Positions 36,232 to 48,253 of a DNA stretch of 64,000 nucleotides are shown piece by piece (position 1 is the first letter of the stretch; each line of letters opens with the position of its first letter). The notes beneath the pieces are model-generated. The model was not told where the DNA came from, made no database searches, and worked only from the letters and a program-made list of their open reading frames with translations. Source of the stretch: an uncultured Acidibacter sp. (GTDB taxonomy: Bacteria > Pseudomonadota > Gammaproteobacteria > Steroidobacterales > Steroidobacteraceae); NCBI GenBank assembly GCA_964533305.1, contig CAZHLL010000001.1:6401-70400 (forward strand), written 5' to 3'. A program made the position numbers and the translations under genes.

Positions 36232-37530
36232 TTACGTCGTAGTCGAACGGGAACGTAGCAAATAAAGTCCAAAACACATAACGAGAATATTGACGGTGCC
36301 GATCAAGAAAAACGGCGAACCCTTACCAGCCATATCGTAGAGCCAACCCCCAATCGAAGTGGTGAAGAGAATGCCGAGCGAAGCACAAATACCCGCCATG
36401 CCAAATACGGCACCTCGCACATCCTGCGGAGCTTCCTGCCCGAGCACAGTTTGACTGGCGATGATGGCGCATATCTGACCCATGCCGAGCAGGATGGCGA
36501 CTGGGATAATCCAATCGCTCGCAGGATCCCCAACAAATCCTCCGGCCATATAGCCGATGCCGGCGACCGCCATGGCCACTACGCCCGCTGTAATGCGGTT
36601 CATCTTGTCCAGCATCAGGCCAAAGAAAATGGCGAATACCAGAGCGGCGATATTGGCGGTCACGTACGGGCGGGTCGCCGCTGCCACCGCCGCGCCTACC
36701 GTCTCGCCATTGGCAATCGCTGTCTGCTGTAAACGAGCGCTGAAAAACGTGCCAATCACGATACGATCGGCAAACGAAACAAACTGCAGCATATAAGCAA
36801 ACCAGATCCGCGGATTGCTGCGCGCCGCGGCCACTCCGGTGCTGAGCAACACCCAAATGGGCTCTCGCTCACCGAGTCGACTTGGCGTACCTCGTTTCAA
36901 GCCCAGCCAGCACGCCAGCGCGGTCAACGCACAGAGTCCTGCGGCGAGGCCGAGCGTGATCCGCCCGGCCAGCACGGCGTCCATGCCATCTTCGGCCAAG
37001 CGCTGTGGCACACGACCCAGTACCAGTACGGCAAGCGTCGCTCCGAGCCCCTGGCAAAACCCCGTAATGCCGACGAACAGCCCGCGTGACTGCTCCTTGG
37101 GTGTATCGGCAAGGACCGTCGCCAACATGCAACCCACTGCCGCCACGCCCACCGAGAAAAACACGGCGCAGGCCAGCAACTGCGGCAGGGTCTGGGCCAA
37201 AGGATAGAGAAAAAACCCGGCCGCGAGCCAAAGAAATCCAAGCGCATACACGGGTCGACGGCCGATCTTGTCCGAGAGCGCCCCGAACGGTGCAACCAAC
37301 AGCAATGACACCAACTCACCACTGAAGCCAAGCAGACCCAAGACCCGACCCTGCTCATCCTGTGGCACTTTCAGATTGGCATTCAGTAGATAAGGCTGAA
37401 TAAAGCTGACAAATGCCAACATGCCGATGGTGATGAACGCGGCAAACAGGTAGGTCCGAGCGTTCCAGGGGCTGTACCCCGGTGCGAGCTGCACCGGCCC
37501 AAATCGGCTGCTGACCAATGGCTCCGTCAT
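36232..37530 (-). CDS. MFS transporter (paralogue of 45078-46358)
   Basis: 432 aa: FGALSDKIGRRPVY (motif A), MLATVLAD, LGMGQICAIIASQTVLGQEAPQDVRGAVFGMAGICASLGILF. Confidence 0.8.
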   Translation of the reverse strand: MTEPLVSSRFGPVQLAPGYSPWNARTYLFAAFITIGMLAFVSFIQPYLLNANLKVPQDEQGRVLGLLGFSGELVSLLLVAPFGALSDKIGRRPVYALGFLWLAAGFFLYPLAQTLPQLLACAVFFSVGVAAVGCMLATVLADTPKEQSRGLFVGITGFCQGLGATLAVLVLGRVPQRLAEDGMDAVLAGRITLGLAAGLCALTALACWLGLKRGTPSRLGEREPIWVLLSTGVAAARSNPRIWFAYMLQFVSFADRIVIGTFFSARLQQTAIANGETVGAAVAAATRPYVTANIAALVFAIFFGLMLDKMNRITAGVVAMAVAGIGYMAGGFVGDPASDWIIPVAILLGMGQICAIIASQTVLGQEAPQDVRGAVFGMAGICASLGILFTTSIGGWLYDMAGKGSPFFLIGTVNILVMCFGLYLLRSRSTTT

Positions 37531-38990
37531 GGCCTGGCGTCTGCGTGGCGTGCCTGTTGCCGTCGGGCACCCCAGGTCATGAGCATAATGACCCCTGCCG
37601 ATAACACGAATGCGGGTAACAATTCATAGACCTCGAACCAGGGCCCAAGCCCCGACAACCGAGGCCAAAGAATCACCGTGGCACCCCCCGTGACGATACC
37701 CGCCAAGGCCGCGTGACGAGTCATGTCGGGCATATACAACGAGAGAATCACGGCGGGCCCGAATGCGGCCCCAAAACCCGCCCACGCCCAGGCCACAAGA
37801 TCGAGTACGCGACTGCTTGGGTCCCAGGCAATCCACAAAGCCACGGCCGCAATGCCGAGCACCGCGAGACGCCCCGATCGCAGCAATTGCGTCGGTGTCG
37901 CAGACGGTCGCAAGACGGCGTAGAAATCCTTGGACAAGGCCGAGGAGGCGACCAACAACTGCGCAGCAGCCGTACTCATGATGGCGGCCATGACACCAGC
38001 GAGACAAATACCGGCCAGTGCAGGGGTCAAAAAAAATGTCGCCATCTCGATGAATACTTTCTCGGTATCGGCACCCGCCAGAGGCTGCGGGTACACCAAG
38101 CGACCACTCAAGCCCACCATCACCGAAGCCACGAGCACGATGATCACCCACGTCATGGCGACTTGTCGCGCCACAGTCAGGTGCTGCACCGAACGAGCGG
38201 CCATGAAGCGCGCGAGGATGTGCGGCTGACCCGCGTAGCCGAGACCCCAGGCCAGCAAAGATAAAATGCCGATCCAACCTAGCCGCTGATCGCCCTCGGC
38301 CACAAAGGGATCGAGCAAGTTGGCATCAAGTGCCTGTAACCCTTCGAAGGTTTGTCTCAAGCCGCCGCTTTCAGCCACACCGACGATGGCTACCATGACC
38401 AGCGCAAAGAACATGAGACTGCCCTGCAGCACATCCGACCAGCTCACTGCCAGAAAGCCACCAAGGAAGACGTAGCCCAGCATGACGACACTGCCCAGTA
38501 TCAGCGCATCATGGTAGGCCAAGGAAAAGACCGACTCGAACAAACGCCCGGCTGCGACAAAGCCAGAACTCGTGTAAAAAACGAAGAACACAAGAATGAA
38601 TATCGCCGAGACGGTACGCAGACTGTGCCGTGTATCGGCAAAGCGATTTTCAAAGTAATCGGGCAGAGTCAGAGACGACAGTCGCTCAGTGGCGTCACGC
38701 AGCGGAGCAGCCACCCAACGCCAATTTGCCCAAGTGCCGAGCACAAGCCCCAACAGCAACCATACCGAGTCGAAACCGGACGCATACGCAAGACCCGGCA
38801 AGCCCATGAGCAACCAGCCACTCATGTCTGTGGCTTGGGCGCTGAGTGCAGTCACCCAACTGCCAAGACTGCGGCCACCAAGGATGTAATCGCCCAAAGT
38901 GCGTGTGCGTCGAAAGGCGATCACCCCGAGCGCCAGGCAGATCGCCATATAAAGCTCCATGGTGACAATGCGCAGTTCAGAATCGGTCAT
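37527..38990 (-). CDS. Sodium:solute symporter (SSF family, PutP-like)
   Basis: 487 aa: DYILGGRSLGSWVTALSAQATDMSGWLLMGLPGLAY, the SSF signature, and about 13 helices. Confidence 0.85.
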   Translation of the reverse strand: MTDSELRIVTMELYMAICLALGVIAFRRTRTLGDYILGGRSLGSWVTALSAQATDMSGWLLMGLPGLAYASGFDSVWLLLGLVLGTWANWRWVAAPLRDATERLSSLTLPDYFENRFADTRHSLRTVSAIFILVFFVFYTSSGFVAAGRLFESVFSLAYHDALILGSVVMLGYVFLGGFLAVSWSDVLQGSLMFFALVMVAIVGVAESGGLRQTFEGLQALDANLLDPFVAEGDQRLGWIGILSLLAWGLGYAGQPHILARFMAARSVQHLTVARQVAMTWVIIVLVASVMVGLSGRLVYPQPLAGADTEKVFIEMATFFLTPALAGICLAGVMAAIMSTAAAQLLVASSALSKDFYAVLRPSATPTQLLRSGRLAVLGIAAVALWIAWDPSSRVLDLVAWAWAGFGAAFGPAVILSLYMPDMTRHAALAGIVTGGATVILWPRLSGLGPWFEVYELLPAFVLSAGVIMLMTWGARRQQARHADARP

Positions 38991-39877
38991 GCCAACCCCC
39001 TTGCAAGCCGGGAGCCAAAGAATTCATCCAGAAATTCAGCGAGTGCACGTCGACTGTCGGGCTCATCCAACGTAGGGGTGTGCCCCCGATCACGGACGGT
39101 GACCGTTCGCAGGCTTGGCCGCAACTGCTGCATGCGCTGCAAGGTAGCCAGCGAGAGCAGATCCGACAGCTCCCCCCGCAGCGCCAACATCGGCTTGGCA
39201 TCCTGCGCCAAATAAGCTTGCCAAAAATCGGGAATCTGCCCATCCGACTCGCGCATGGCCTGGCCGATCAAAGGATCCATGTCACGCTCGATGATGCCCG
39301 GCGCTCGCTCCCGACAAAGCCGACGGGCAAAGCGCAACCAATCGGCAGGTTCGAAATCGGGCATGGCCGAGCGATGTCCTGCAGCCAACTGCCCTGCGGC
39401 TTGATCCCAAGTGGAGGCGGCCGGCGCCGTACCGACGGTACTGGCGATACGCAGCAGACCGACCGGATCGAGCTCGGGGCCGATATCATTGAGGATCAAC
39501 GCGGCAACGTCTGGTGAGGACTCGCGACTGAGGCAAAGTCCGATCAGTCCGCCCAGTGACGTGCCGAGCACGATGACCCGCGGTAGCTGCAGGGCAGCTA
39601 ACAGGCAGCGGATGTCATCAAGATAGACCTCGAGCCGATAATGCCGCCAATCCGGATCGCGATCGGACTCTCCACGACCACGCAAGTCCGGTGCAAGCAC
39701 GCGGTACTCTTGCGCCAACCAGGGGGCGAGGGACTCGAAGTCGCGGCTATTGCGAGTCAAGCCCGCCAAACACAGCACGGGCGGCCTGGCTAAAGCCGCA
39801 GCGGGGGCTGCTGCCGGGTAATCCGCGCAATACAGGTTGAGACCGTCGCTCAGACGAACGAAATGCCGAACCATCAC
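38987..39877 (-). CDS. Alpha/beta hydrolase
   Basis: 296 aa: [16 protein letters not shown], nucleophile elbow GTSLGG, C-terminal [11 protein letters not shown]. Confidence 0.8.
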
Positions 39878-40287
39878 TTGGCAAACAACATGGCCGGATC
39901 GCGGAAAGACTTGAACTCGAGCGCATTGCCCGAAGGATCAAACAGGAAAAACGTGGCTTGTTCGCCAACTTCGCCCGCAAATCGAATACCGGGCGGGATG
40001 ACGAACTGAGCCCCAGCCGCCTCGAGCCGCCCCGCAAGCCTATGCCAATCCTCCCACGCCAGTACGACCCCGAAGTGAGGTACGGGAACATGTTTGCCAT
40101 CAACGACATTGTGATGCAGGGATTCTTTTAGCCTTGGATCAAGATGCACCACCAGCTGATGACCAAAGAAAGCAAAATCCACCCATTCCTCGCTGGAGCG
40201 CCCCTCCAGGCAAGCAAACAAGCCGCCGTAAAATTCGCGAGCGGCCGCGAGATCATGCACCGGTATGGCGAGATGAAAAGGGACCAT
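39874..40287 (-). CDS. VOC/glyoxalase-fold family protein
   Basis: Start at M43 ([24 protein letters not shown]), giving a 1-nt TGATG overlap with the SDR gene. HFGVVL ... [13 protein letters not shown]. Confidence 0.7.
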
Positions 40288-41111
40288 CAGCGACGACCCA
40301 GCAACTTTGGCAGTATTTTCTGGAATCTTTGCGGCATCCATCGCTTGAGACGCCACAGCCAAAGATATTTTTCGGGATATACGCAGTAATTGTTGCCGCG
40401 AGCAGCCGACCACAAGATGGCCTCCGCCACCTGCTCGGCCGTGGTATCAGCTTGTTCAACCAACTTTCGAGCTGATGCCAGTGTCTTCTCTGAGCCGCGG
40501 GCGGTCTCCATCAAGCGGGTCACGAAAAACCCGGGCATGGCAACAAGTACCTTGACACCATATGCCGAATACTCTTGCATCAAAGATTCACTGAGTGCAA
40601 CGACGGCTGCCTTCGAGGCATTGTAGATAGACATGTGCGTGCCCGTGCAAAAACTGGCGGCACTCGCGATATTGATGATCAAGCCACCCGGGCCCCGAGC
40701 CATGTGGCGGATGACTGCACGCGAAGCATTGGCCACACCGACCACGTTGATATCCATGACCCAACGCCAGTCCTGCTCGGTGCTGCCATGAAACGGACCT
40801 GCCCAGGCTACGCCGGCGCAATGTACCGATATATCGATGCCGCCCGCCATGGCGACGGCCTCATCGATCGCATGATCGAGTGCCGCCGCATCCCGCACAT
40901 CACCCTCGATCGTGGTCACCAACGCACCATCGCGACGAAAACTATCCGCCACCAGCGTGAGGCGGCTGGCATCCATATCGTGCAAAAACAGCTGCCAACC
41001 CTCGCGCGCCAGAATCTCCGCGCAAGCCAAACCGAGACCGCTGGCGGCGCCGGTAATGAACGCCCGCTTGCGCGGATAACGTTGGGATAAATTACTGGCG
41101 GCGGCCGTCAT
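40287..41111 (-). CDS. SDR family oxidoreductase
   Basis: 274 aa: [13 protein letters not shown] (TGxxxGxG), [15 protein letters not shown] (YxxxK). Confidence 0.88.
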
Positions 41112-41129
41112 GGTGGCTAGGTTACACCG

Positions 41130-42713
41130 TCAGACCCCGAGCCGAACACGCAGTTGGCGCGCCTGCGTCTGAATGGCCTCTCGCTCGTCATCTCCCAAAC
41201 GCGCAAGATTGCGTAACTGCAATTGCATGCGGGGATTACCGGCAAGCAGCTCCCGGTGGCGAAGCAAAAAATCCCAGTAGAGAGTAGTGAAGGGACAGGC
41301 GCGCTCGCCCGTGGATTGCTGCGGCCGATAACGACATTGGCCGCAATAGTTGCCCATCCGCTCGATGTAGCGACCTGTGGCGATATAGGGCTTGGAAGCC
41401 ATGATGCCGCCGTCGGCGTACTGCGACATCCCAAGCGTATTCGGCAATTCCACCCATTCGACGGCATCGACATACACGGCCAGATACCAGGCGTGAACCG
41501 CCTTTGGATCGACACCCAGCATGAGGGCGAACAGCCCGGTGACCATCAATCTTTGAATATGGTGGGCATAGCCATAACGCAAGGTCTGCTGAATCGCATC
41601 CTGCAAACACGGCATGTCCGTCTCACCGCTCCAGTAGAAGGCTGGCAGCGCCCCACTCGCCTGCAATGCATTGCGTTCAAGGTATTCGGGCATGAAGTGC
41701 CAATAGATCCCGCGCACGTACTCGCGCCAGCCCAGCACCTGTCGAATGAAACCTTCAGCAGCAGCGAGCGGCATGGCGTCCTCATGGAACGCTCGCTCGA
41801 TACGTGCGATGACGGTCTGCGGATCAATCAATTTGAGATTAAGTGCCACAGAGAGCCGCGAGTGCCACAACCACGGCTCACCCTGCCATATCGCATCCTG
41901 ATAGGCGCCAAACAGGGCCCCTCGGTGGCGGACGAAATCCTCCAGTGCCGCATCAGCCTGCGCGGGCGTCAGTGGCCAGTCGAAATCCTGCAGACTCCCA
42001 GGATGATCGGGGTAGCGCGTAGCGACCTCTTGCAGAACCTCTCGCGTCAAAGCGTCAGGCTCGAATGAAAGCGGTGACGACAGACCCAGCGCCCCCGGCC
42101 CCTCGCGGCCAAAGCTCTTGCGATTGTCAGCGTCATAATTCCATTGCCCGCCCACCGGCGAGCCGTCTGCCTCCAGTAACACTTGATGACGTCGTCGCAT
42201 CTCACGATAAAAATATTCCATGCGTAGCTGCTTTCGTCCGCGAGCATGTCGGGCAAATTCGTCTCGACTACAAAGAAAATGTCGGTCCTCGTGAATTACG
42301 AGTGGACAGGCCAGGCCCTTCTGCATTGCCAGCAAACCCTCGCGCAAGCGCCACTCGCCAGGTTCGACCACATGCACGCTTTGCGGCTTGATTGAACCGA
42401 TGTCATCCTTCAGCGCCTCGAGCAGATTTTCCTTTTGATCCTGCAAGCGGTGGTAACACACTGTCCAGCCCTCAGCTCTACGAGCTGCTGCAAACTGGCG
42501 CATGGCGCCAATGAATACGGCGATACGCGGCTTGCTGGACCAGACATGGGTCGCTTCCGCAGCTGCCTCGCACATCCAGATCACATCCTGATCGCGATCG
42601 GATTCTTTGAAGACTTCAGACGAGACATTAAGTTGATCGCCGAGCACCACGATGAGACGACGTGGCGCGGATACGGTGCGGGTCACTGACGGGGAGCGAC
42701 GAGTAGTAGTCAT
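41130..42713 (-). CDS. Cryptochrome/photolyase family protein of the Fe-S bacterial (6-4) photolyase type (PhrB/CryB-like)
   Basis: 527 aa. N-terminal LIVVLGDQLN (DPRP-type domain). GYAHHIQRLMVTG. Four Cys in the FeS-BCP arrangement: DMPCLQD ... YCGQCRY ... RACPFTTLYWDFL. Confidence 0.8.
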   Translation of the reverse strand: MTTTRRSPSVTRTVSAPRRLIVVLGDQLNVSSEVFKESDRDQDVIWMCEAAAEATHVWSSKPRIAVFIGAMRQFAAARRAEGWTVCYHRLQDQKENLLEALKDDIGSIKPQSVHVVEPGEWRLREGLLAMQKGLACPLVIHEDRHFLCSRDEFARHARGRKQLRMEYFYREMRRRHQVLLEADGSPVGGQWNYDADNRKSFGREGPGALGLSSPLSFEPDALTREVLQEVATRYPDHPGSLQDFDWPLTPAQADAALEDFVRHRGALFGAYQDAIWQGEPWLWHSRLSVALNLKLIDPQTVIARIERAFHEDAMPLAAAEGFIRQVLGWREYVRGIYWHFMPEYLERNALQASGALPAFYWSGETDMPCLQDAIQQTLRYGYAHHIQRLMVTGLFALMLGVDPKAVHAWYLAVYVDAVEWVELPNTLGMSQYADGGIMASKPYIATGRYIERMGNYCGQCRYRPQQSTGERACPFTTLYWDFLLRHRELLAGNPRMQLQLRNLARLGDDEREAIQTQARQLRVRLGV

Positions 42714-42828
42714 GGGGGCTGATCATAGACCGGTCGCCCATACCTGCGATCACTTTACCTCTTACCACCGTCGTGTCAGCGTCGACGCTCTGGTCATCAC
42801 ACCACGCGAAGCAAATGGGGGGTCCATC

Positions 42829-44538
42829 ATGAAGGCTGTATCGCGTCGTCATTTCCTATCGGGCTCTGTGGGTTTGACCGCTGCCGCGCTGGCGGCAGCC
42901 GAGCTGAAGCTCAATCAGGCGTTGGCGCAACGCCCCCCCGGTGCCGGCGGCCCTCCACCCGGGGTGGGTGGGCCTCCTGCCGGAATAGCGGCTCCGCCCA
43001 TGGCCGGCGGACCCGCCAAACCGCTCGGCCCGCCACCGAAGTGGGAGTTCGGACCCTTCGAAGATTTGCGCGACTGGATCGCCGAACTCGACCGTCGCGG
43101 CTTAGCGCTCCGCGTCCGCGATGTCGATCAAGACGCCTATGAAGGTACGGCGCTCATGTACCGGCTCATTGATCGCTTTGGCATGTACTTTGCGCCCGTG
43201 CTAATTCTGGAAAACGTCAAGATCGATGGCAAATGGCATGCAGGCCCCATCATCACCAATCATTTTGGTCACTGGGATACCGAGTGCCTGAGCTTCGGCA
43301 TCGAGCCCATCGCCGGCGATCATGTGGCGACCTATTACAAGGCCTTGGCGCGGGTACAGGAATATCTTGATCGGGGCAGCGCCGGCGCTTTCCCGACGGC
43401 GCCTTTCATTGAGGTAACACGCGATCAAGCGCCCTGCAAAGAGGTCGTACTGCGTGACGATCAGGTCAACTTACTGGACTTCGCTTTCATCCAGTCAAAT
43501 CCGGCAGACTCGACCCGTTACGTCAACACGGGATCCGTCTTCACCGACGACGCCGAGCTCGGTAAAAACTTCGGTACCTACCGCTGTGAGATCAAAGGCC
43601 CACGATTGCTGGGCATCAACCCGGAAGAAGGTCAGGGCGCCTGGAGAGCGTTCATGAAGGCGAAAGAGCGCGGTGACAAATCGGTCAAAGTATCGATTGC
43701 GCTCGGACAAGATCCAGTGACCTGGGTGGTATCGAGTTCCAAACTCAATCGCGCCGGTGCCGATGAGCTCGAAGTTGTCTCCGCCATTCGTGGCAAACCC
43801 TTGCGGGTGATCCGCTCCGAGACCAACGACCATCTGATCCCGGCGAACTCCGAAATGGTCATCGAAGGTATCGTCCCGCTGGATCAACCCATGCTACCGG
43901 AGGGGCCCTTCGGGGAAATGTACGGCTATATGGGTGCACGCAAAAGCGAAAATTTCTGGATGCAAGTTACCGCGATCACACATCGACGAAATCCGTGGGT
44001 GGTCAATCAATTCACTGGCGTGACTCGCGGCTTCACCACGGCGCCGCTCGAGCAAATCGCCATGAATTCATTGAAGCGCTTTATGCCAAATGTAACCATG
44101 CTGCATACGCCGGTGGAAGCCACGGGATTCTGTTTCGTCAGTATCAAAAAGCAGAAACCCGGCGAAGCATTGGAGATTGGTCAACGCATTGCCCAAATTG
44201 TGGGTATTGCCAAAGTGGTCGTGGTGGTGGATGACGACATTGAAGTCCTGGATCGTACTCAGGTCATGCATGCCATGGGTTCGCGCTGGCAGCCTAATCC
44301 CGCATCCCGCATTATCGATGAATCACGCGGCATGCCGCTGGACCCGTCGCTGACCAACCGCCCCATGACATCAAAGATCGTGATCGACGCGACCCGACAA
44401 TGGCCGGAGGAGGGAGGTCCTGCGGTCTATCAAGCGCTGAATCGCACCGAGCTTGAACGCCTGGCACCTGACGCTTTCGCAAGGGTGGGCGAACGCTGGA
44501 CCGACTGGGTGGGCGATTATCGACCACCCGGTGTTTGA
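42829..44538 (+). CDS. UbiD-family decarboxylase with an N-terminal twin-arginine signal and a Pro/Gly-rich linker
   Basis: Start at ATG 42829, preceded by GGGGGG. Signal MKAVSRRHFLSGSVGLTAAALAAAELKLNQALA. Linker QRPPGAGGPPPGVGGPPAGIAAPPMAGGPAKPLGPPP. UbiD core NFGTYRCEI, SIALGQDP, ELEVVSAIRGKPLRVIRSETNDHLIPANSEMVIEGIV, EGPFGEMYGYMG. Confidence 0.8.
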   Translation: MKAVSRRHFLSGSVGLTAAALAAAELKLNQALAQRPPGAGGPPPGVGGPPAGIAAPPMAGGPAKPLGPPPKWEFGPFEDLRDWIAELDRRGLALRVRDVDQDAYEGTALMYRLIDRFGMYFAPVLILENVKIDGKWHAGPIITNHFGHWDTECLSFGIEPIAGDHVATYYKALARVQEYLDRGSAGAFPTAPFIEVTRDQAPCKEVVLRDDQVNLLDFAFIQSNPADSTRYVNTGSVFTDDAELGKNFGTYRCEIKGPRLLGINPEEGQGAWRAFMKAKERGDKSVKVSIALGQDPVTWVVSSSKLNRAGADELEVVSAIRGKPLRVIRSETNDHLIPANSEMVIEGIVPLDQPMLPEGPFGEMYGYMGARKSENFWMQVTAITHRRNPWVVNQFTGVTRGFTTAPLEQIAMNSLKRFMPNVTMLHTPVEATGFCFVSIKKQKPGEALEIGQRIAQIVGIAKVVVVVDDDIEVLDRTQVMHAMGSRWQPNPASRIIDESRGMPLDPSLTNRPMTSKIVIDATRQWPEEGGPAVYQALNRTELERLAPDAFARVGERWTDWVGDYRPPGV

Positions 44539-44545
44539 AACTGGG

Positions 44546-45106
44546 ATGAGCGTAGAGATGGGTGTGGGTGTAGACACGGGTATACCCTTAGAGATTTGCA
44601 CCACACGACTACGACTACGTGCTTTTCGCGAAGACGATGCCAGCTTCGTGTTGCAATTGATGAACGAGCCCGCCTTTCATCGTTTCATTGGTGATCGCGG
44701 TATTCGGTCAATGGAAGATGCACAGCGCTATCTGCGTGACGGACCGATTGCCAGCTATGGTCAACATGGCCATGGCCTGCTGCATGTCTCGCTGGTGAAC
44801 TGTGCAACGCCTGTCGGCATGTGCGGTCTCGTGCGCCGCGATAGCCTGCCGGGCCCGGATATCGGCTTCGCCCTGCTGCAGGCGCATGAGAACCAAGGCT
44901 ACGCTACCGAAGCGGCGCTCGCCGTGCTCGATCATGCGCAGAACACGCTTCGCTTACCGGCAGTGTACGGCATTACCCAGCCCGACAATTACCGCTCGAT
45001 GCGTACCCTCGAAAAGCTGGGACTGCGGTTGCTCGAATGTCGGCAAGTCACGGACGACGGTCCGAAGCTCAATGTATTCATTCGGAAATTCGAGGTTGTT
45101 TCCTGA
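44546..45106 (+). CDS. GNAT family N-acetyltransferase
   Basis: Start at M32 of the track ORF, 8 nt after the UbiD stop. TTRLRLRAFREDDASFVLQLMNEPAF ... IGFALLQAHENQGYATEAALAVLDHA ... NYRSMRTLEKLG. Confidence 0.8.
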   Translation: MSVEMGVGVDTGIPLEICTTRLRLRAFREDDASFVLQLMNEPAFHRFIGDRGIRSMEDAQRYLRDGPIASYGQHGHGLLHVSLVNCATPVGMCGLVRRDSLPGPDIGFALLQAHENQGYATEAALAVLDHAQNTLRLPAVYGITQPDNYRSMRTLEKLGLRLLECRQVTDDGPKLNVFIRKFEVVS

Positions 45107-46412: not shown

Positions 46413-46904
46413 TCAGCCATACCACGCGGACGGATTTTTTTGATGAAGACGACGATCCAAACCGAACCACAGTCCGGTTCGCCACAGAACGAACGGCATG
46501 AAGAACAGGGTGAGTACGATCAAAGAGGCGTCGTAGTAACCCCCCACGGCAAAAGACAGCATCATGAACATGGCCCCTGCAGCCGAGAGACGAGTCAGCA
46601 GACCGAGACACAGCCCAATCGCGATCAAGGTTTCACCCCAGCAGACATACCAGGCCAAAGGCAGCCAAAACGGCAAGCCGATATGCTCCAGAAAAAGCGC
46701 GCCGACACTTTCAGGGTCAATTTCTTCAAGGCGTTCACTGAACACCCTCAAGAGCTTGTCGGAAAAGAGATAGTTCTGCTCCCATTTATTGATGGCTGCG
46801 CTCAAAAAAAACAATGCCAATAGGTAACGAAACACGAGTAAGGCGATCTTGCCGACACCGAGCCGTACAGACATGACGGGTGCCTCCGAGGCCGTGTCGG
46901 TCAT
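46413..46904 (-). CDS. DoxX-like membrane protein
   Basis: 163 aa with four helices. IALLVFRYLLALFFLSAAINKW and LLTRLSAAGAMFMMLSF resemble the DoxX family. ATGA-type overlap with the upstream gene. Confidence 0.55.
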   Translation of the reverse strand: MTDTASEAPVMSVRLGVGKIALLVFRYLLALFFLSAAINKWEQNYLFSDKLLRVFSERLEEIDPESVGALFLEHIGLPFWLPLAWYVCWGETLIAIGLCLGLLTRLSAAGAMFMMLSFAVGGYYDASLIVLTLFFMPFVLWRTGLWFGLDRRLHQKNPSAWYG

Positions 46905-47413
46905 GGTCGATCACTCAGGGGCAGCGGCCGGCCAAGCACCTCGCGTACGAACGCGTAACCGTCCCGCCGCGGCAAGGTGGCGCAGCACCCTTGCAGCTCG
47001 CCAGTGACGGTACGCCACTCCCCCTCGCGCATGTCTATGCGCGCATCCGGCAAGACGATGGTCGCTGCAGCCAAATCAATCCGCGCGGCTAACCCATCCT
47101 GCCGCAAGTCTTTGTGCTGGCCGTTCGCAAGATAAATAGTCAACGGTCGGATATCGGTGGTTTTGGGCCGGATACGCGCGATCAAGTAATCCCAGATGGT
47201 CGCAATTTGTGCCCAGAAAGTTTTGGCCCTAAGCCGATACAGTGTGTACGTCTCATTGTCTGATTGGCAACGGATGAAGTCGTCACAGGTGGTGCAATAA
47301 ATATTGATCCGGATCAAATGAGAGTCCGGCACAGCGTCTGCCGCACGGGCGCTGTGTATCGATGCCGCGAGGCATGCAATCACCAACCAGAACCTGCGCG
47401 CGTGATACCGCAA
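46901..47413 (-). CDS. Hypothetical exported protein
   Basis: 170 aa. Signal MRYHARRFWLVIACLAASIHSARA. Cys pairs (CTTCDDFIRC, GCC). I recognise no family. Confidence 0.5.
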   Translation of the reverse strand: MRYHARRFWLVIACLAASIHSARAADAVPDSHLIRINIYCTTCDDFIRCQSDNETYTLYRLRAKTFWAQIATIWDYLIARIRPKTTDIRPLTIYLANGQHKDLRQDGLAARIDLAAATIVLPDARIDMREGEWRTVTGELQGCCATLPRRDGYAFVREVLGRPLPLSDRP

Positions 47414-47566: not shown

Positions 47567-48253
47567 ATGGACGTTCGCAGAAAGCAGTCAATGGTGGTTT
47601 TGCTGTGCGCCTTCTTTGGGCTGATGCAGACCCACGGCGAGACGGTGCAGGCAGAGGCGAGAGATGGTGAGGTGCCGACAGACTTCTGCGCACAGGCTCA
47701 ACAGTGGATTGTGAGTACCCAGCTCGTAGCCCGTAATGAAGTCTTTGACAACTTTGAAGCCTTCACCAAATCGAAACCCGTCGTCTCACCCCTCGTCACG
47801 ACACAATACACTTGGCCGCAGCGCCTGCCCGAAGGCGGCGCCATGCAGGTGTCATGCAAGATGAAAACGGCGGATCATCTGCACAGCGTCTTCGGGCCTG
47901 AGGCAGCAGGCCTGGACATCGGCTGTCGGGGAGTCAATGAACGCCTGCTCGAACAGGTGTTAGCCAATATGACCGAATCAGACCGTGCGCAGCTGAAAGT
48001 CACGCCGGGAGTCAGCCTGATCTTTGAGGACGATATCGTGACCGCGCAGGGCCCACTCTGGCTTGAGCCCTATCCCATGGTTCGCCGCCAAGCAGGCACG
48101 CTCATCGTACAAGCCAAAGGCATGAAAAACGATTGGAACGACCCCCGTTATGCGCAAGCGCCGCCGCAATTTCGAGGTACACGATATTGTCACCTGATCG
48201 CACCCGCTTACTTACGGGCGCTGCTGCTCGGTAAAGACGTCAGCGCATGGTGA
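47567..48253 (+). CDS. Hypothetical exported protein
   Basis: 228 aa. RBS GGGGGA. Signal [17 protein letters not shown] recognise no family. Confidence 0.5.

Follow-up and report, generated by a model that had tools for sequence, protein, structure and literature searches.

Can a UbiD-family decarboxylase act outside the cytoplasm? The question is raised by a gene in a 64,000-nucleotide stretch of contig CAZHLL010000001.1 from an uncultured Acidibacter sp. (Steroidobacteraceae), which we refer to as the window. The open reading frame (ORF) at 42829-44538 (+ strand) encodes a 569-amino-acid (aa) product made up of a signal, a spacer, and a UbiD core, in that order. To our knowledge, every characterized UbiD-family enzyme is cytoplasmic, including UbiD, Fdc1, AroY, VdcCD, HmfF, HudA, PhdA, the phthaloyl-CoA decarboxylases, and the xanthine-carboxylate decarboxylase of 2025. 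An initial annotation, made from the sequence alone, had nevertheless proposed an exported (de)carboxylase. Our comparative analysis supports that reading at the sequence level, as the proteins with a twin-arginine translocation (Tat) signal form a monophyletic clade that includes switches from an AxA cleavage site to a lipobox, tandem Tat-lipoprotein paralogues, and neighbors with Sec signals. The protein is probably a periplasmic or membrane-tethered (de)carboxylase of the type that uses prenylated FMN (prFMN). The gene and its parts are laid out as follows.

42714-42828, no strand: divergent intergenic region of 115 bp, between the DPRP operon (- strand) and the UbiD gene (+ strand)
42829-42927, + strand: twin-arginine signal peptide, residues 1 to 33 (Pfam TAT_signal below its gathering score, homologue conservation, codon selection)
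42928-43038, + strand: low-complexity Pro/Gly/Ala spacer, predicted to be disordered, residues 34 to 70 (composition; AlphaFold predicted local distance difference test, pLDDT)
43039-44538, + strand: UbiD-family core, residues 71 to 569 plus stop codon (Pfam, NCBIfam TIGR00148, PDB sequence matches, Foldseek), with UbiD_N at residues 84 to 160, the UbiD prFMN-binding domain at 196 to 397, and the UbiD_C oligomerization domain at 406 to 521
43567-43584, + strand: NFGTYR, residues 247 to 252 (alignment to Fdc1)
43633-43638, + strand: Q269-G270, equivalents of Fdc1 Q190 (kept) and H191 (replaced)
43765-43767, + strand: E313, equivalent of Fdc1 E233
43900-43917, + strand: EGPFGE, residues 358 to 363, with the equivalents of Fdc1 E277/E282 at E358/E363

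A conserved twin-arginine signal and its single origin

The translation opens with MKAVSRRHFLSGSVGLTAAALAAAELKLNQALA|QRPP..., where MKAVSRRHFLSGSVGLTAAALAAAELKLNQALA represents residues 1 to 33. The n-region, MKAVSRRHFL, carries the arginine pair R6/R7, and S5-R6-R7-H8-F9-L10 matches the Tat consensus S/T-R-R-x-F-L-K. In the annotation of the signal peptide (residues 1 to 33) the h-region is SGSVGLTAAALAAA, and the h-region stretch LSGSVGLTAAALAAA has a mean Kyte-Doolittle hydrophobicity of 1.24 and contains no charged residues. The c-region, ELKLNQALA, provides the basic residue K27 followed by a predicted A-x-A|Q site for signal peptidase I (ALA|Q). The S-R-R-x-F-L motif, hydrophobic core, and A-x-A site named in the initial annotation are all present, and the arginine pair recurs in every complete homologue. 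The same anatomy (S-R-R-x-F-L, an h-region of weak hydrophobicity, a c-region with a basic residue, and an AxA site) is found in Tat substrates that carry molybdenum cofactor, iron-sulfur clusters, copper, or FAD.

A word-indexed protein search returned 1096 proteins below 1e-10, and the best 120 of these were 68 to 100% identical to the window protein. Every untruncated protein among the best 120 has SRR[DHN]F[LI], an h-region of Ala, Ser, Gly, and Leu, and a c-region that follows the pattern ADLK[LI]A[EA]A|Q. The motif, the h-region, and AxA|Q are shared by about 115 homologues at 68 to 88% identity, in which a spacer of variable length leads to W[EQ][FV]GPF[ED]DLR, where the UbiD_N domain begins. 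A scan of GTDB representatives, a single genome for each species, detected a relative in 178 genomes, and we examined the N-terminus at the best 80 loci. All 75 complete loci (54 to 88% identity) have the arginine pair; the other five are cut by contig ends or broken. In a distant group the arginine pair sits in an altered context, LDRRQLL(S/T)AAAG..., and at two loci (L067 and L079) a lipobox (VTGC) stands in place of AxA.

The codons of the signal carry the same message. Over the 28-codon signal region, synonymous changes make up 59% of the pairwise codon differences, and variable sites are distributed as 22/17/28 over the three codon positions, so the region is translated and under purifying selection. 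Together with the conservation, this indicates that the signal is neither a chance resemblance nor a start-codon artefact. A GGGGGG Shine-Dalgarno-like run lies 7 to 12 nt 5' of ATG 42829, and homologues start 4 to 23 residues before the arginine motif, with unrelated sequence upstream of their starts. Both observations agree with the start and G-rich ribosome-binding site chosen in the initial annotation, and a true start downstream of the arginine pair is contradicted by the conservation and by the codon-level selection pattern. We rejected a 628-aa in-frame ORF from ATG 42652 (JGI call, P0001), as its upstream part is not conserved in any homologue. Start calls disagree elsewhere too: RefSeq WP_101759675.1 (P0307) is 25 residues shorter than P0125, which removes the arginine motif. 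The host of both calls, Oceanicoccus sp. KOV_DT_Chl, is the only cultured organism that we encountered; complete genomes with the gene also include OZ257256.1, CP070671.1, and OZ244979.1.

Between signal and core, residues 34 to 70 form a 37-residue spacer with 14 Pro, 10 Gly, and 6 Ala, which is disordered in an AlphaFold model (pLDDT below 50 over residues 35 to 61). A Pro/Gly linker of about 40 residues had been described here; the linker is present, but its composition is specific to the lineage, and the feature that clade members have in common is a low-complexity spacer of 9 to 64 residues that is Ala/Ser/Thr-rich or basic in other lineages. We therefore dropped the idea of the Pro/Gly linker as a conserved module. 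The idea of a repeat-encoded module was also dropped, as there is no tandem repeat in the DNA.

An exhaustive HMMER search with the mature core against 1.84 billion 50%-identity representatives gave 137 matches below 1e-30. A sharp score gap separates a small subfamily (35 to 51% identity to the query among its full-length representatives, the closest above 350 bits) from generic UbiDs (about 30% identity, below 170 bits). Subfamily members include proteins with a Tat signal and a lipobox Cys (P0121, P0124, P0125, and P0132), proteins with a Tat signal and an AxA-type site (P0135, P0142, P0147, and P0168), and proteins without a signal (P0123, P0127, P0130, and P0131); a Tat-like N-terminus occurs in none of about 100 outgroup representatives. 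In a neighbor-joining tree (451 well-occupied columns, 100 bootstraps), the Tat-bearing proteins are monophyletic (99/100) within a subfamily recovered in 100/100 replicates, and the signal-less sisters branch below them. Therefore, the signal has a single origin, and export would have arisen once. Inside the clade, forms with a signal peptidase I-type site and lipoprotein forms appear from their N-termini to interconvert. Ten positions are invariant in the clade and absent from the sisters and the outgroup (R6, R7, L92, D115, D133, H148, T151, P160, G186, and G401); R6 and R7 have this status in 24/24 sequences, and there is no cysteine for a periplasmic disulfide among these clade-specific invariants. 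The clade spans about 180 species-level genomes, nearly all uncultured. The best 80 loci all belong to Gammaproteobacteria, mostly Steroidobacteraceae/Acidibacter and metagenome-assembled genomes labeled "Chromatiales."

Relatives offer further signs of an extracytoplasmic location. Three UbiD paralogues of the Tat-lipoprotein type (556, 558, and 555 aa) stand in tandem at L087:8001-13565 (ENA contig ctg125328, 3.66 Mb). They have SRRxF...LAALAAxGC and intact catalytic motifs, and after them come genes for an F420_oxidored-like protein that carries a Sec signal, for an FAD_binding_4/ALO oxidase, and for MipA, an outer-membrane protein. The array looks like an extracytoplasmic gene cluster. In the group at 69 to 75% identity, a gene for an NmrA-like/DUF6265 protein with a Sec signal lies directly downstream at 10 loci (for example L040:11492-12685 and L041:11482-12774, both with a Sec-type signal), and L040 also has an upstream VOC protein with a lipoprotein-like signal. 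The lipobox switches, the tandem Tat-lipoproteins, and the Sec-signal neighbors are independent signs that point to a location outside the cytoplasm. A nucleotide-binding fold (NAD(P)-binding NmrA-like) targeted to the periplasm is unusual in itself. As a separate observation, the gene for the signal-less sister P0123 (503 aa, His metal ligand kept) starts 26 nt after a gene for a c-type cytochrome with a Sec signal (Cytochrome_CBB3, 133 aa; L088:4502-6440); other exported proteins are encoded nearby, which is odd for a cytoplasmic enzyme.

The UbiD core and its catalytic residues

The full-length UbiD core and the core motifs quoted in the initial annotation are all found in the translation, and the Pfam domains and the fold bear them out. 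The window protein matches UbiD (PF01977; 163.7 bits against a cut-off of 23.3, 4e-48) and UbiD_C (PF20696; 83.9 bits against 24.2, 1e-23), with a weak match to UbiD_N; UbiD and UbiD_C are matched in 41/41 family members. The general NCBIfam model TIGR00148 gives 222 bits against a cut-off of 244.85, and the scores for equivalog models are far below their thresholds: 105 against 788 bits for UbiD proper (NF008175), 199 against 650 for VdcC (NF041204), and 152 against 496 for the menaquinone SCO4490-type family (TIGR03701). The protein thus belongs to the UbiD superfamily by its domains, fold, and catalytic motif and lies outside all of the named equivalog families tested. Public records name these proteins "UbiD family decarboxylase" or "4-hydroxy-3-polyprenylbenzoate decarboxylase" (JGI). 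The second name is a misleading over-annotation, unsupported by the equivalog score.

In an AlphaFold2 model built on 41 homologues (mean pLDDT 74.6), the core is confident from about residue 70 (pLDDT mostly 70 to 95), residues 18 to 33 (the h-region) form a helix, and pLDDT is also below 50 for residues 1 to 25. The top 50 Foldseek matches in the PDB are all UbiD-family structures (TMt 0.70 to 0.82, 19 to 27% identity), and a PDB sequence search agrees, returning ShVdcC, HmfF, EcUbiD, and Fdc1. The best match is VdcC/BsdC, the C subunit of phenolic acid decarboxylase (PDB 7ae4 and 7ae5; phmmer 1e-40; for ShVdcC, Foldseek E 5e-37, TM 0.75, 26% identity), which shares the three-domain architecture, the N-x4-R and E-x4-E motifs, and the Glu metal ligand. 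Unlike the window protein, VdcC is cytoplasmic, has no signal peptide, and keeps its His metal ligand; it also requires the small Zn-ribbon protein VdcD and the clustered VdcB (UbiX), neither of which is encoded near the window gene. E. coli UbiD (5m1c), the 4-hydroxy-3-polyprenylbenzoate decarboxylase of ubiquinone biosynthesis, has the same fold (TM about 0.78) and the same catalytic motif but is only about 25% identical, and it is a cytoplasmic, membrane-peripheral protein. Fdc1, the ferulic/cinnamic acid decarboxylase (4za4), aligns throughout the prFMN-binding domain with six key-residue equivalents present, and HmfF, the 2,5-furandicarboxylate decarboxylase (6h6v and 6h6x), reaches TM 0.79 to 0.82. 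Both are cytosolic and 19 to 27% identical to the window protein, in which Fdc1 H191 is replaced by Gly.

We mapped residues by alignment to A. niger Fdc1, in which residue roles, including those of H191 and Q190, have been described (PMC4947166). The family catalytic motif is R-Xn-E-X4-(E/D), and in Fdc1 the R-E-E network serves both prFMN maturation and catalysis (PMC5818171). The catalytic Arg (R173) corresponds to R252 and the catalytic Glu pair (E277/E282) to E358/E363; the Mn2+ ligand N168 is N247, the Mn2+/K+ ligand E233 is E313, and the cofactor-contacting Q190 is Q269. A third Mn2+ ligand of the Fdc1 set (N168, H191, E233, and also K391), H191, has become G270, within the family-invariant motif G[IV]NPEEGQGAW. 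Both NFGTYR and EGPFGEMYGY stand unaltered in 120/120 close homologues. In a sample of 26 Tat-bearing sequences (25 loci plus the window protein, 54 to 100% identity), the equivalents of N168, R173, Q190, E233, E277, and E282 are invariant in 26/26. Missing cofactor and catalytic residues had been named as grounds for doubting an enzyme here: the R-E-E network, Q190, and two Mn2+ ligands are invariant, but the His191 equivalent is a Gly, a loss that the earlier reader had overlooked. The enzymology is familiar; the compartment and the remodeled metal site are unexpected.

A proposed exported prFMN enzyme and the alternatives

From these features we propose the following route. The apoprotein would fold in the cytoplasm and be loaded there with prFMN from the housekeeping UbiX, an enzyme expected in ubiquinone-making Gammaproteobacteria. 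TatABC would then export the folded holo-enzyme; the Tat pathway suits proteins whose folding and cofactor binding have to precede export, and inserting a cytoplasm-only cofactor beforehand is a logic that the protein would share with other cofactor-containing Tat substrates. No gene for a dedicated chaperone (redox enzyme maturation protein, REMP) is evident nearby. Signal peptidase I would probably cleave after A33 (ALA33), leaving a flexible N-terminal tail of about 37 residues, and in sister lineages Lgt and LspA would act on the lipobox Cys, giving an enzyme held by a lipid anchor and a comparable spacer. The probable role of this spacer is to hold the signal or anchor away from a folded, probably oligomeric core. 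Outside the cytoplasm, with a cofactor metal site that appears remodeled by loss of the His ligand, the Arg-Glu-Glu network would (de)carboxylate an aromatic, heteroaromatic, or alpha,beta-unsaturated acid. In the literature searched, we found no report of a UbiD/prFMN enzyme that has a Tat signal or is periplasmic or secreted, and no Tat substrate carrying prenylated FMN. We consider export of the protein highly probable and UbiD-type catalytic activity likely, and the account as a whole, an exported, prFMN-containing UbiD-type (de)carboxylase, is the one that we favor, with somewhat less assurance.

Several points weigh against this account. The window protein scores 16.2 bits against a gathering score of 22.7 for Pfam TAT_signal (PF10518), and the NCBIfam Tat-signal model is not among its matches listed at E<=0.01. 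Because short signal models frequently miss genuine signals, the sub-threshold score weakens the Tat claim only slightly; PF10518 matches 31/41 family members at E<=0.1 (best 1.5e-4). Non-covalently bound prFMN would be irreplaceable once the enzyme was outside the cell. Characterized aromatic-acid UbiD enzymes are often hexamers (PMC8379154), which are a large cargo for Tat. Linkage was screened over the whole window and within 10 kb of the UbiD gene at 84 loci. As noted before, the window has no ubiX-like gene: tblastn with E. coli UbiX found no match there, and there is none within 10 kb at the 84 loci, so prFMN would have to come from a presumed gene in another part of the genome. That the window lacks ubiX is in itself uninformative. 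The same screen of the window and of 10 kb around the UbiD gene at the 84 loci turned up neither tatABC nor a VdcD-like partner, and no neighbor that could serve as a substrate clue is conserved across the clade at these loci. Of the six cofactor and catalytic residues that we mapped, one Tat-lipoprotein member, P0124, has lost four (the equivalents of N168, R173, E233, and E277 are D, T, K, and T) and may be an exported pseudoenzyme. Finally, the H191 position holds G, T, S, R, Q, M, or F and never His or Asp in the 26 sampled exported members, and the missing His may mean that Mn2+/prFMN binding is altered or lost.

This last point bears on a possibility that we regard as unlikely, namely that the protein is Tat exported and no longer a canonical Mn2+/prFMN enzyme. 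It would then hold another divalent cation (Mg2+ or Ca2+, which all-oxygen ligands would favor), a differently bound flavin, or another prosthetic group, and its chemistry might differ from known UbiD decarboxylation. The position is likewise never His or Asp in the three L087 paralogues, P0124, and P0125, and it is His or Asp in 5/5 signal-less sisters and in 82/101 outgroup representatives. The ligand was lost at the same node at which export was gained; because the Tat clade is monophyletic, this loss is a single evolutionary event and not a repeated correlation. The position has since stayed free to vary, which suggests that a fourth ligand is dispensable in the exported enzymes. The gain of a clade-specific invariant His148 and the unlinked ubiX also fit an altered cofactor. 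On the other side, the equivalents of Q190, N168, E233, the Ser-rich phosphate loop, and the R-E-E network are all invariant. Moreover, about 19% of outgroup UbiD representatives, E. coli UbiD included, also lack His or Asp in the H191 column, and the loop aligns loosely, the His of E. coli UbiD lying two positions earlier. Overall, we take the loss of His191 as genuine but uncertain in its effect. The lost ligand might be made good by His148 (in NHFGHWDTEC), which has become fixed in the clade; together with D115, D133, P160, and G401, this His lies in a span of clade-specific positions at nt ~43270-44033.

It is rather improbable that the signal stays uncleaved and tethers the protein, in the manner of a Rieske protein, to the periplasmic face of the inner membrane, where it could act on a membrane-soluble acid, in line with the lipid-anchored sisters. 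Behind the signal there is always a flexible spacer, as expected for a tether and of no obvious use on a soluble protein, and the interconversion of signal peptidase I-type and lipobox forms suggests that the two topologies are equivalent. Canonical UbiD, moreover, acts on a membrane-bound polyprenyl substrate. However, with about 15 residues and many Gly, Ser, and Thr, the h-region is short and has the character of a typical cleavable Tat signal, unlike a transmembrane helix, and throughout the close family A-x-A|Q is kept behind a c-region that contains Lys.

Very improbable is an exported UbiD-fold protein that has given up catalysis and serves as a pseudoenzyme or ligand-binding protein. 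P0124, the clade-wide loss of one metal ligand, and the unconserved pathway context would fit it. However, P0124 is a single sequence on a 2.4-kb contig (JGI), and both catalytic motifs in 120/120 close homologues and the catalytic residues in 26/26 sampled sequences follow the pattern expected of an active enzyme. A cytoplasmic protein whose arginine stretch results from misannotation or belongs to a leader that is untranslated or regulatory, with the true start downstream (e.g., at M57), would accord with the disagreement among pipelines (JGI 628 aa; RefSeq WP_101759675.1 shorter) and with the sub-threshold TAT_signal score, but it is scarcely credible given protein-level conservation with a synonymous excess across dozens of species, many homologues that have no in-frame Met between signal and core, and the G-rich ribosome-binding site before ATG 42829.

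Gene neighborhood and implications

The genes and the element around the exported-enzyme candidate are listed here.

38987-39877, - strand: alpha/beta-hydrolase gene of the DPRP operon
39874-40413, - strand: VOC/glyoxalase-fold gene of the DPRP operon
40287-41111, - strand: SDR gene of the DPRP operon
41130-42713, - strand: DPRP gene (PF04244, photolyase-related), divergent from the UbiD gene and leading the operon
42752-42779, - strand: promoter-like element, CTGACA-N16-TAAAGT
44546-45106, + strand: GNAT (Acetyltransf_3) gene, 7 nt after the UbiD stop codon, no signal peptide

The immediate surroundings are as the initial annotation had them: a GNAT gene directly downstream and a 115-bp spacer to a divergent photolyase-type operon. 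The GNAT gene is probably cotranscribed with the UbiD gene but is no constant partner in the clade. It occupies the downstream position in roughly 26/84 loci, all with a UbiD of at least 81% identity, and is replaced elsewhere by Pirin, NmrA/DUF6265, SIMPL, or other genes. The order DPRP-SDR-VOC-alpha/beta-hydrolase (- strand), Tat-UbiD-GNAT (+ strand), and MFS-DoxX recurs in L001 to L004 and in roughly 30 loci with a UbiD at least 78% identical. At 72 to 75% identity only SDR-VOC is still adjacent, and loci at 54 to 69% lack an adjacent SDR-VOC. In the group at about 55% identity, the UbiD gene is directly preceded by a same-strand dienelactone-hydrolase gene (about 20 loci), and genes for SIMPL, FAA-hydrolase, aldehyde dehydrogenase, and MatE follow it. 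Taken together, the neighbors (VOC, hydrolases, and dehydrogenases) loosely suggest aromatic or xenobiotic acid metabolism.

Shared regulation with the photolyase operon had also been suggested. The divergent arrangement is real, but the gene order is conserved only in relatives at the level of Steroidobacteraceae. We rejected functional coupling to the DPRP operon, as adjacency is limited to relatives of at least 78% identity and is taken as inherited synteny. Across 25 distinct DPRP-UbiD spacers (the window and the homologous spacers of L001 to L046), CTTTAC-N15-TG[TG]CA[GC] occurs at fixed spacing in 22. Judged from its sequence, the element at 42752-42779 is probably a sigma70-like promoter of the DPRP operon and not an element of the UbiD gene; sigma54 and extracytoplasmic function (ECF) readings fit poorly by eye. 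The motif gives no demonstration of UbiD coregulation. A second conserved block, GATCATAGACCGGTCGC, adjoins the DPRP start (~42720-42737).

The operon stretch (37527-42713, - strand) also takes in a sodium:solute symporter, and in L001 an FAD_binding_7 photolyase and a luciferase-like monooxygenase are inserted in it; it may be a light or photo-oxidative-stress module. The prFMN of Fdc1 is irreversibly photo-isomerized and photo-inactivated (PMC5818171), which makes the photolyase neighborhood intriguing, and a tie between the two would be speculative. Farther downstream, 46901-47413 (- strand) and 47567-48253 (+ strand) encode hypothetical proteins (170 and 228 aa) with Sec-type signals and no Pfam match, and homologues of the 228-aa protein recur about 4 to 8 kb from the UbiD gene in about 16 loci.

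Tentatively, and as a possibility that we hold slightly short of even, the clade may represent the first extracytoplasmic prFMN branch. One ancestral UbiD would have gained a Tat signal, lost its Mn2+-binding His at the same node, and spread through at least ~180 gammaproteobacterial species in soluble and lipid-anchored forms, sometimes in tandem. In that event prFMN would be a new class of Tat-carried cofactor, the metal site would be suited to the periplasm, acids would be (de)carboxylated before uptake, and a tie to light in Steroidobacteraceae would be possible.

For genome annotation, ubiquinone-pathway reconstructions that count these genes as UbiD are mistaken. If the clade is exported, prFMN would join the cofactors moved across the membrane by Tat, and the coincidence of His loss with the origin of export would provide a natural experiment on the UbiD metal site. 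Exported UbiD variants that are possibly more oxygen tolerant and metal independent could be of interest for biocatalysis and CO2 fixation. Export would also make reversible (de)carboxylation of aromatic and unsaturated acids possible in the periplasm of abundant freshwater and soil Gammaproteobacteria, and such a reaction, if it takes place, would bear on the turnover of lignin and of humic and phenolic acids and on detoxification before uptake.

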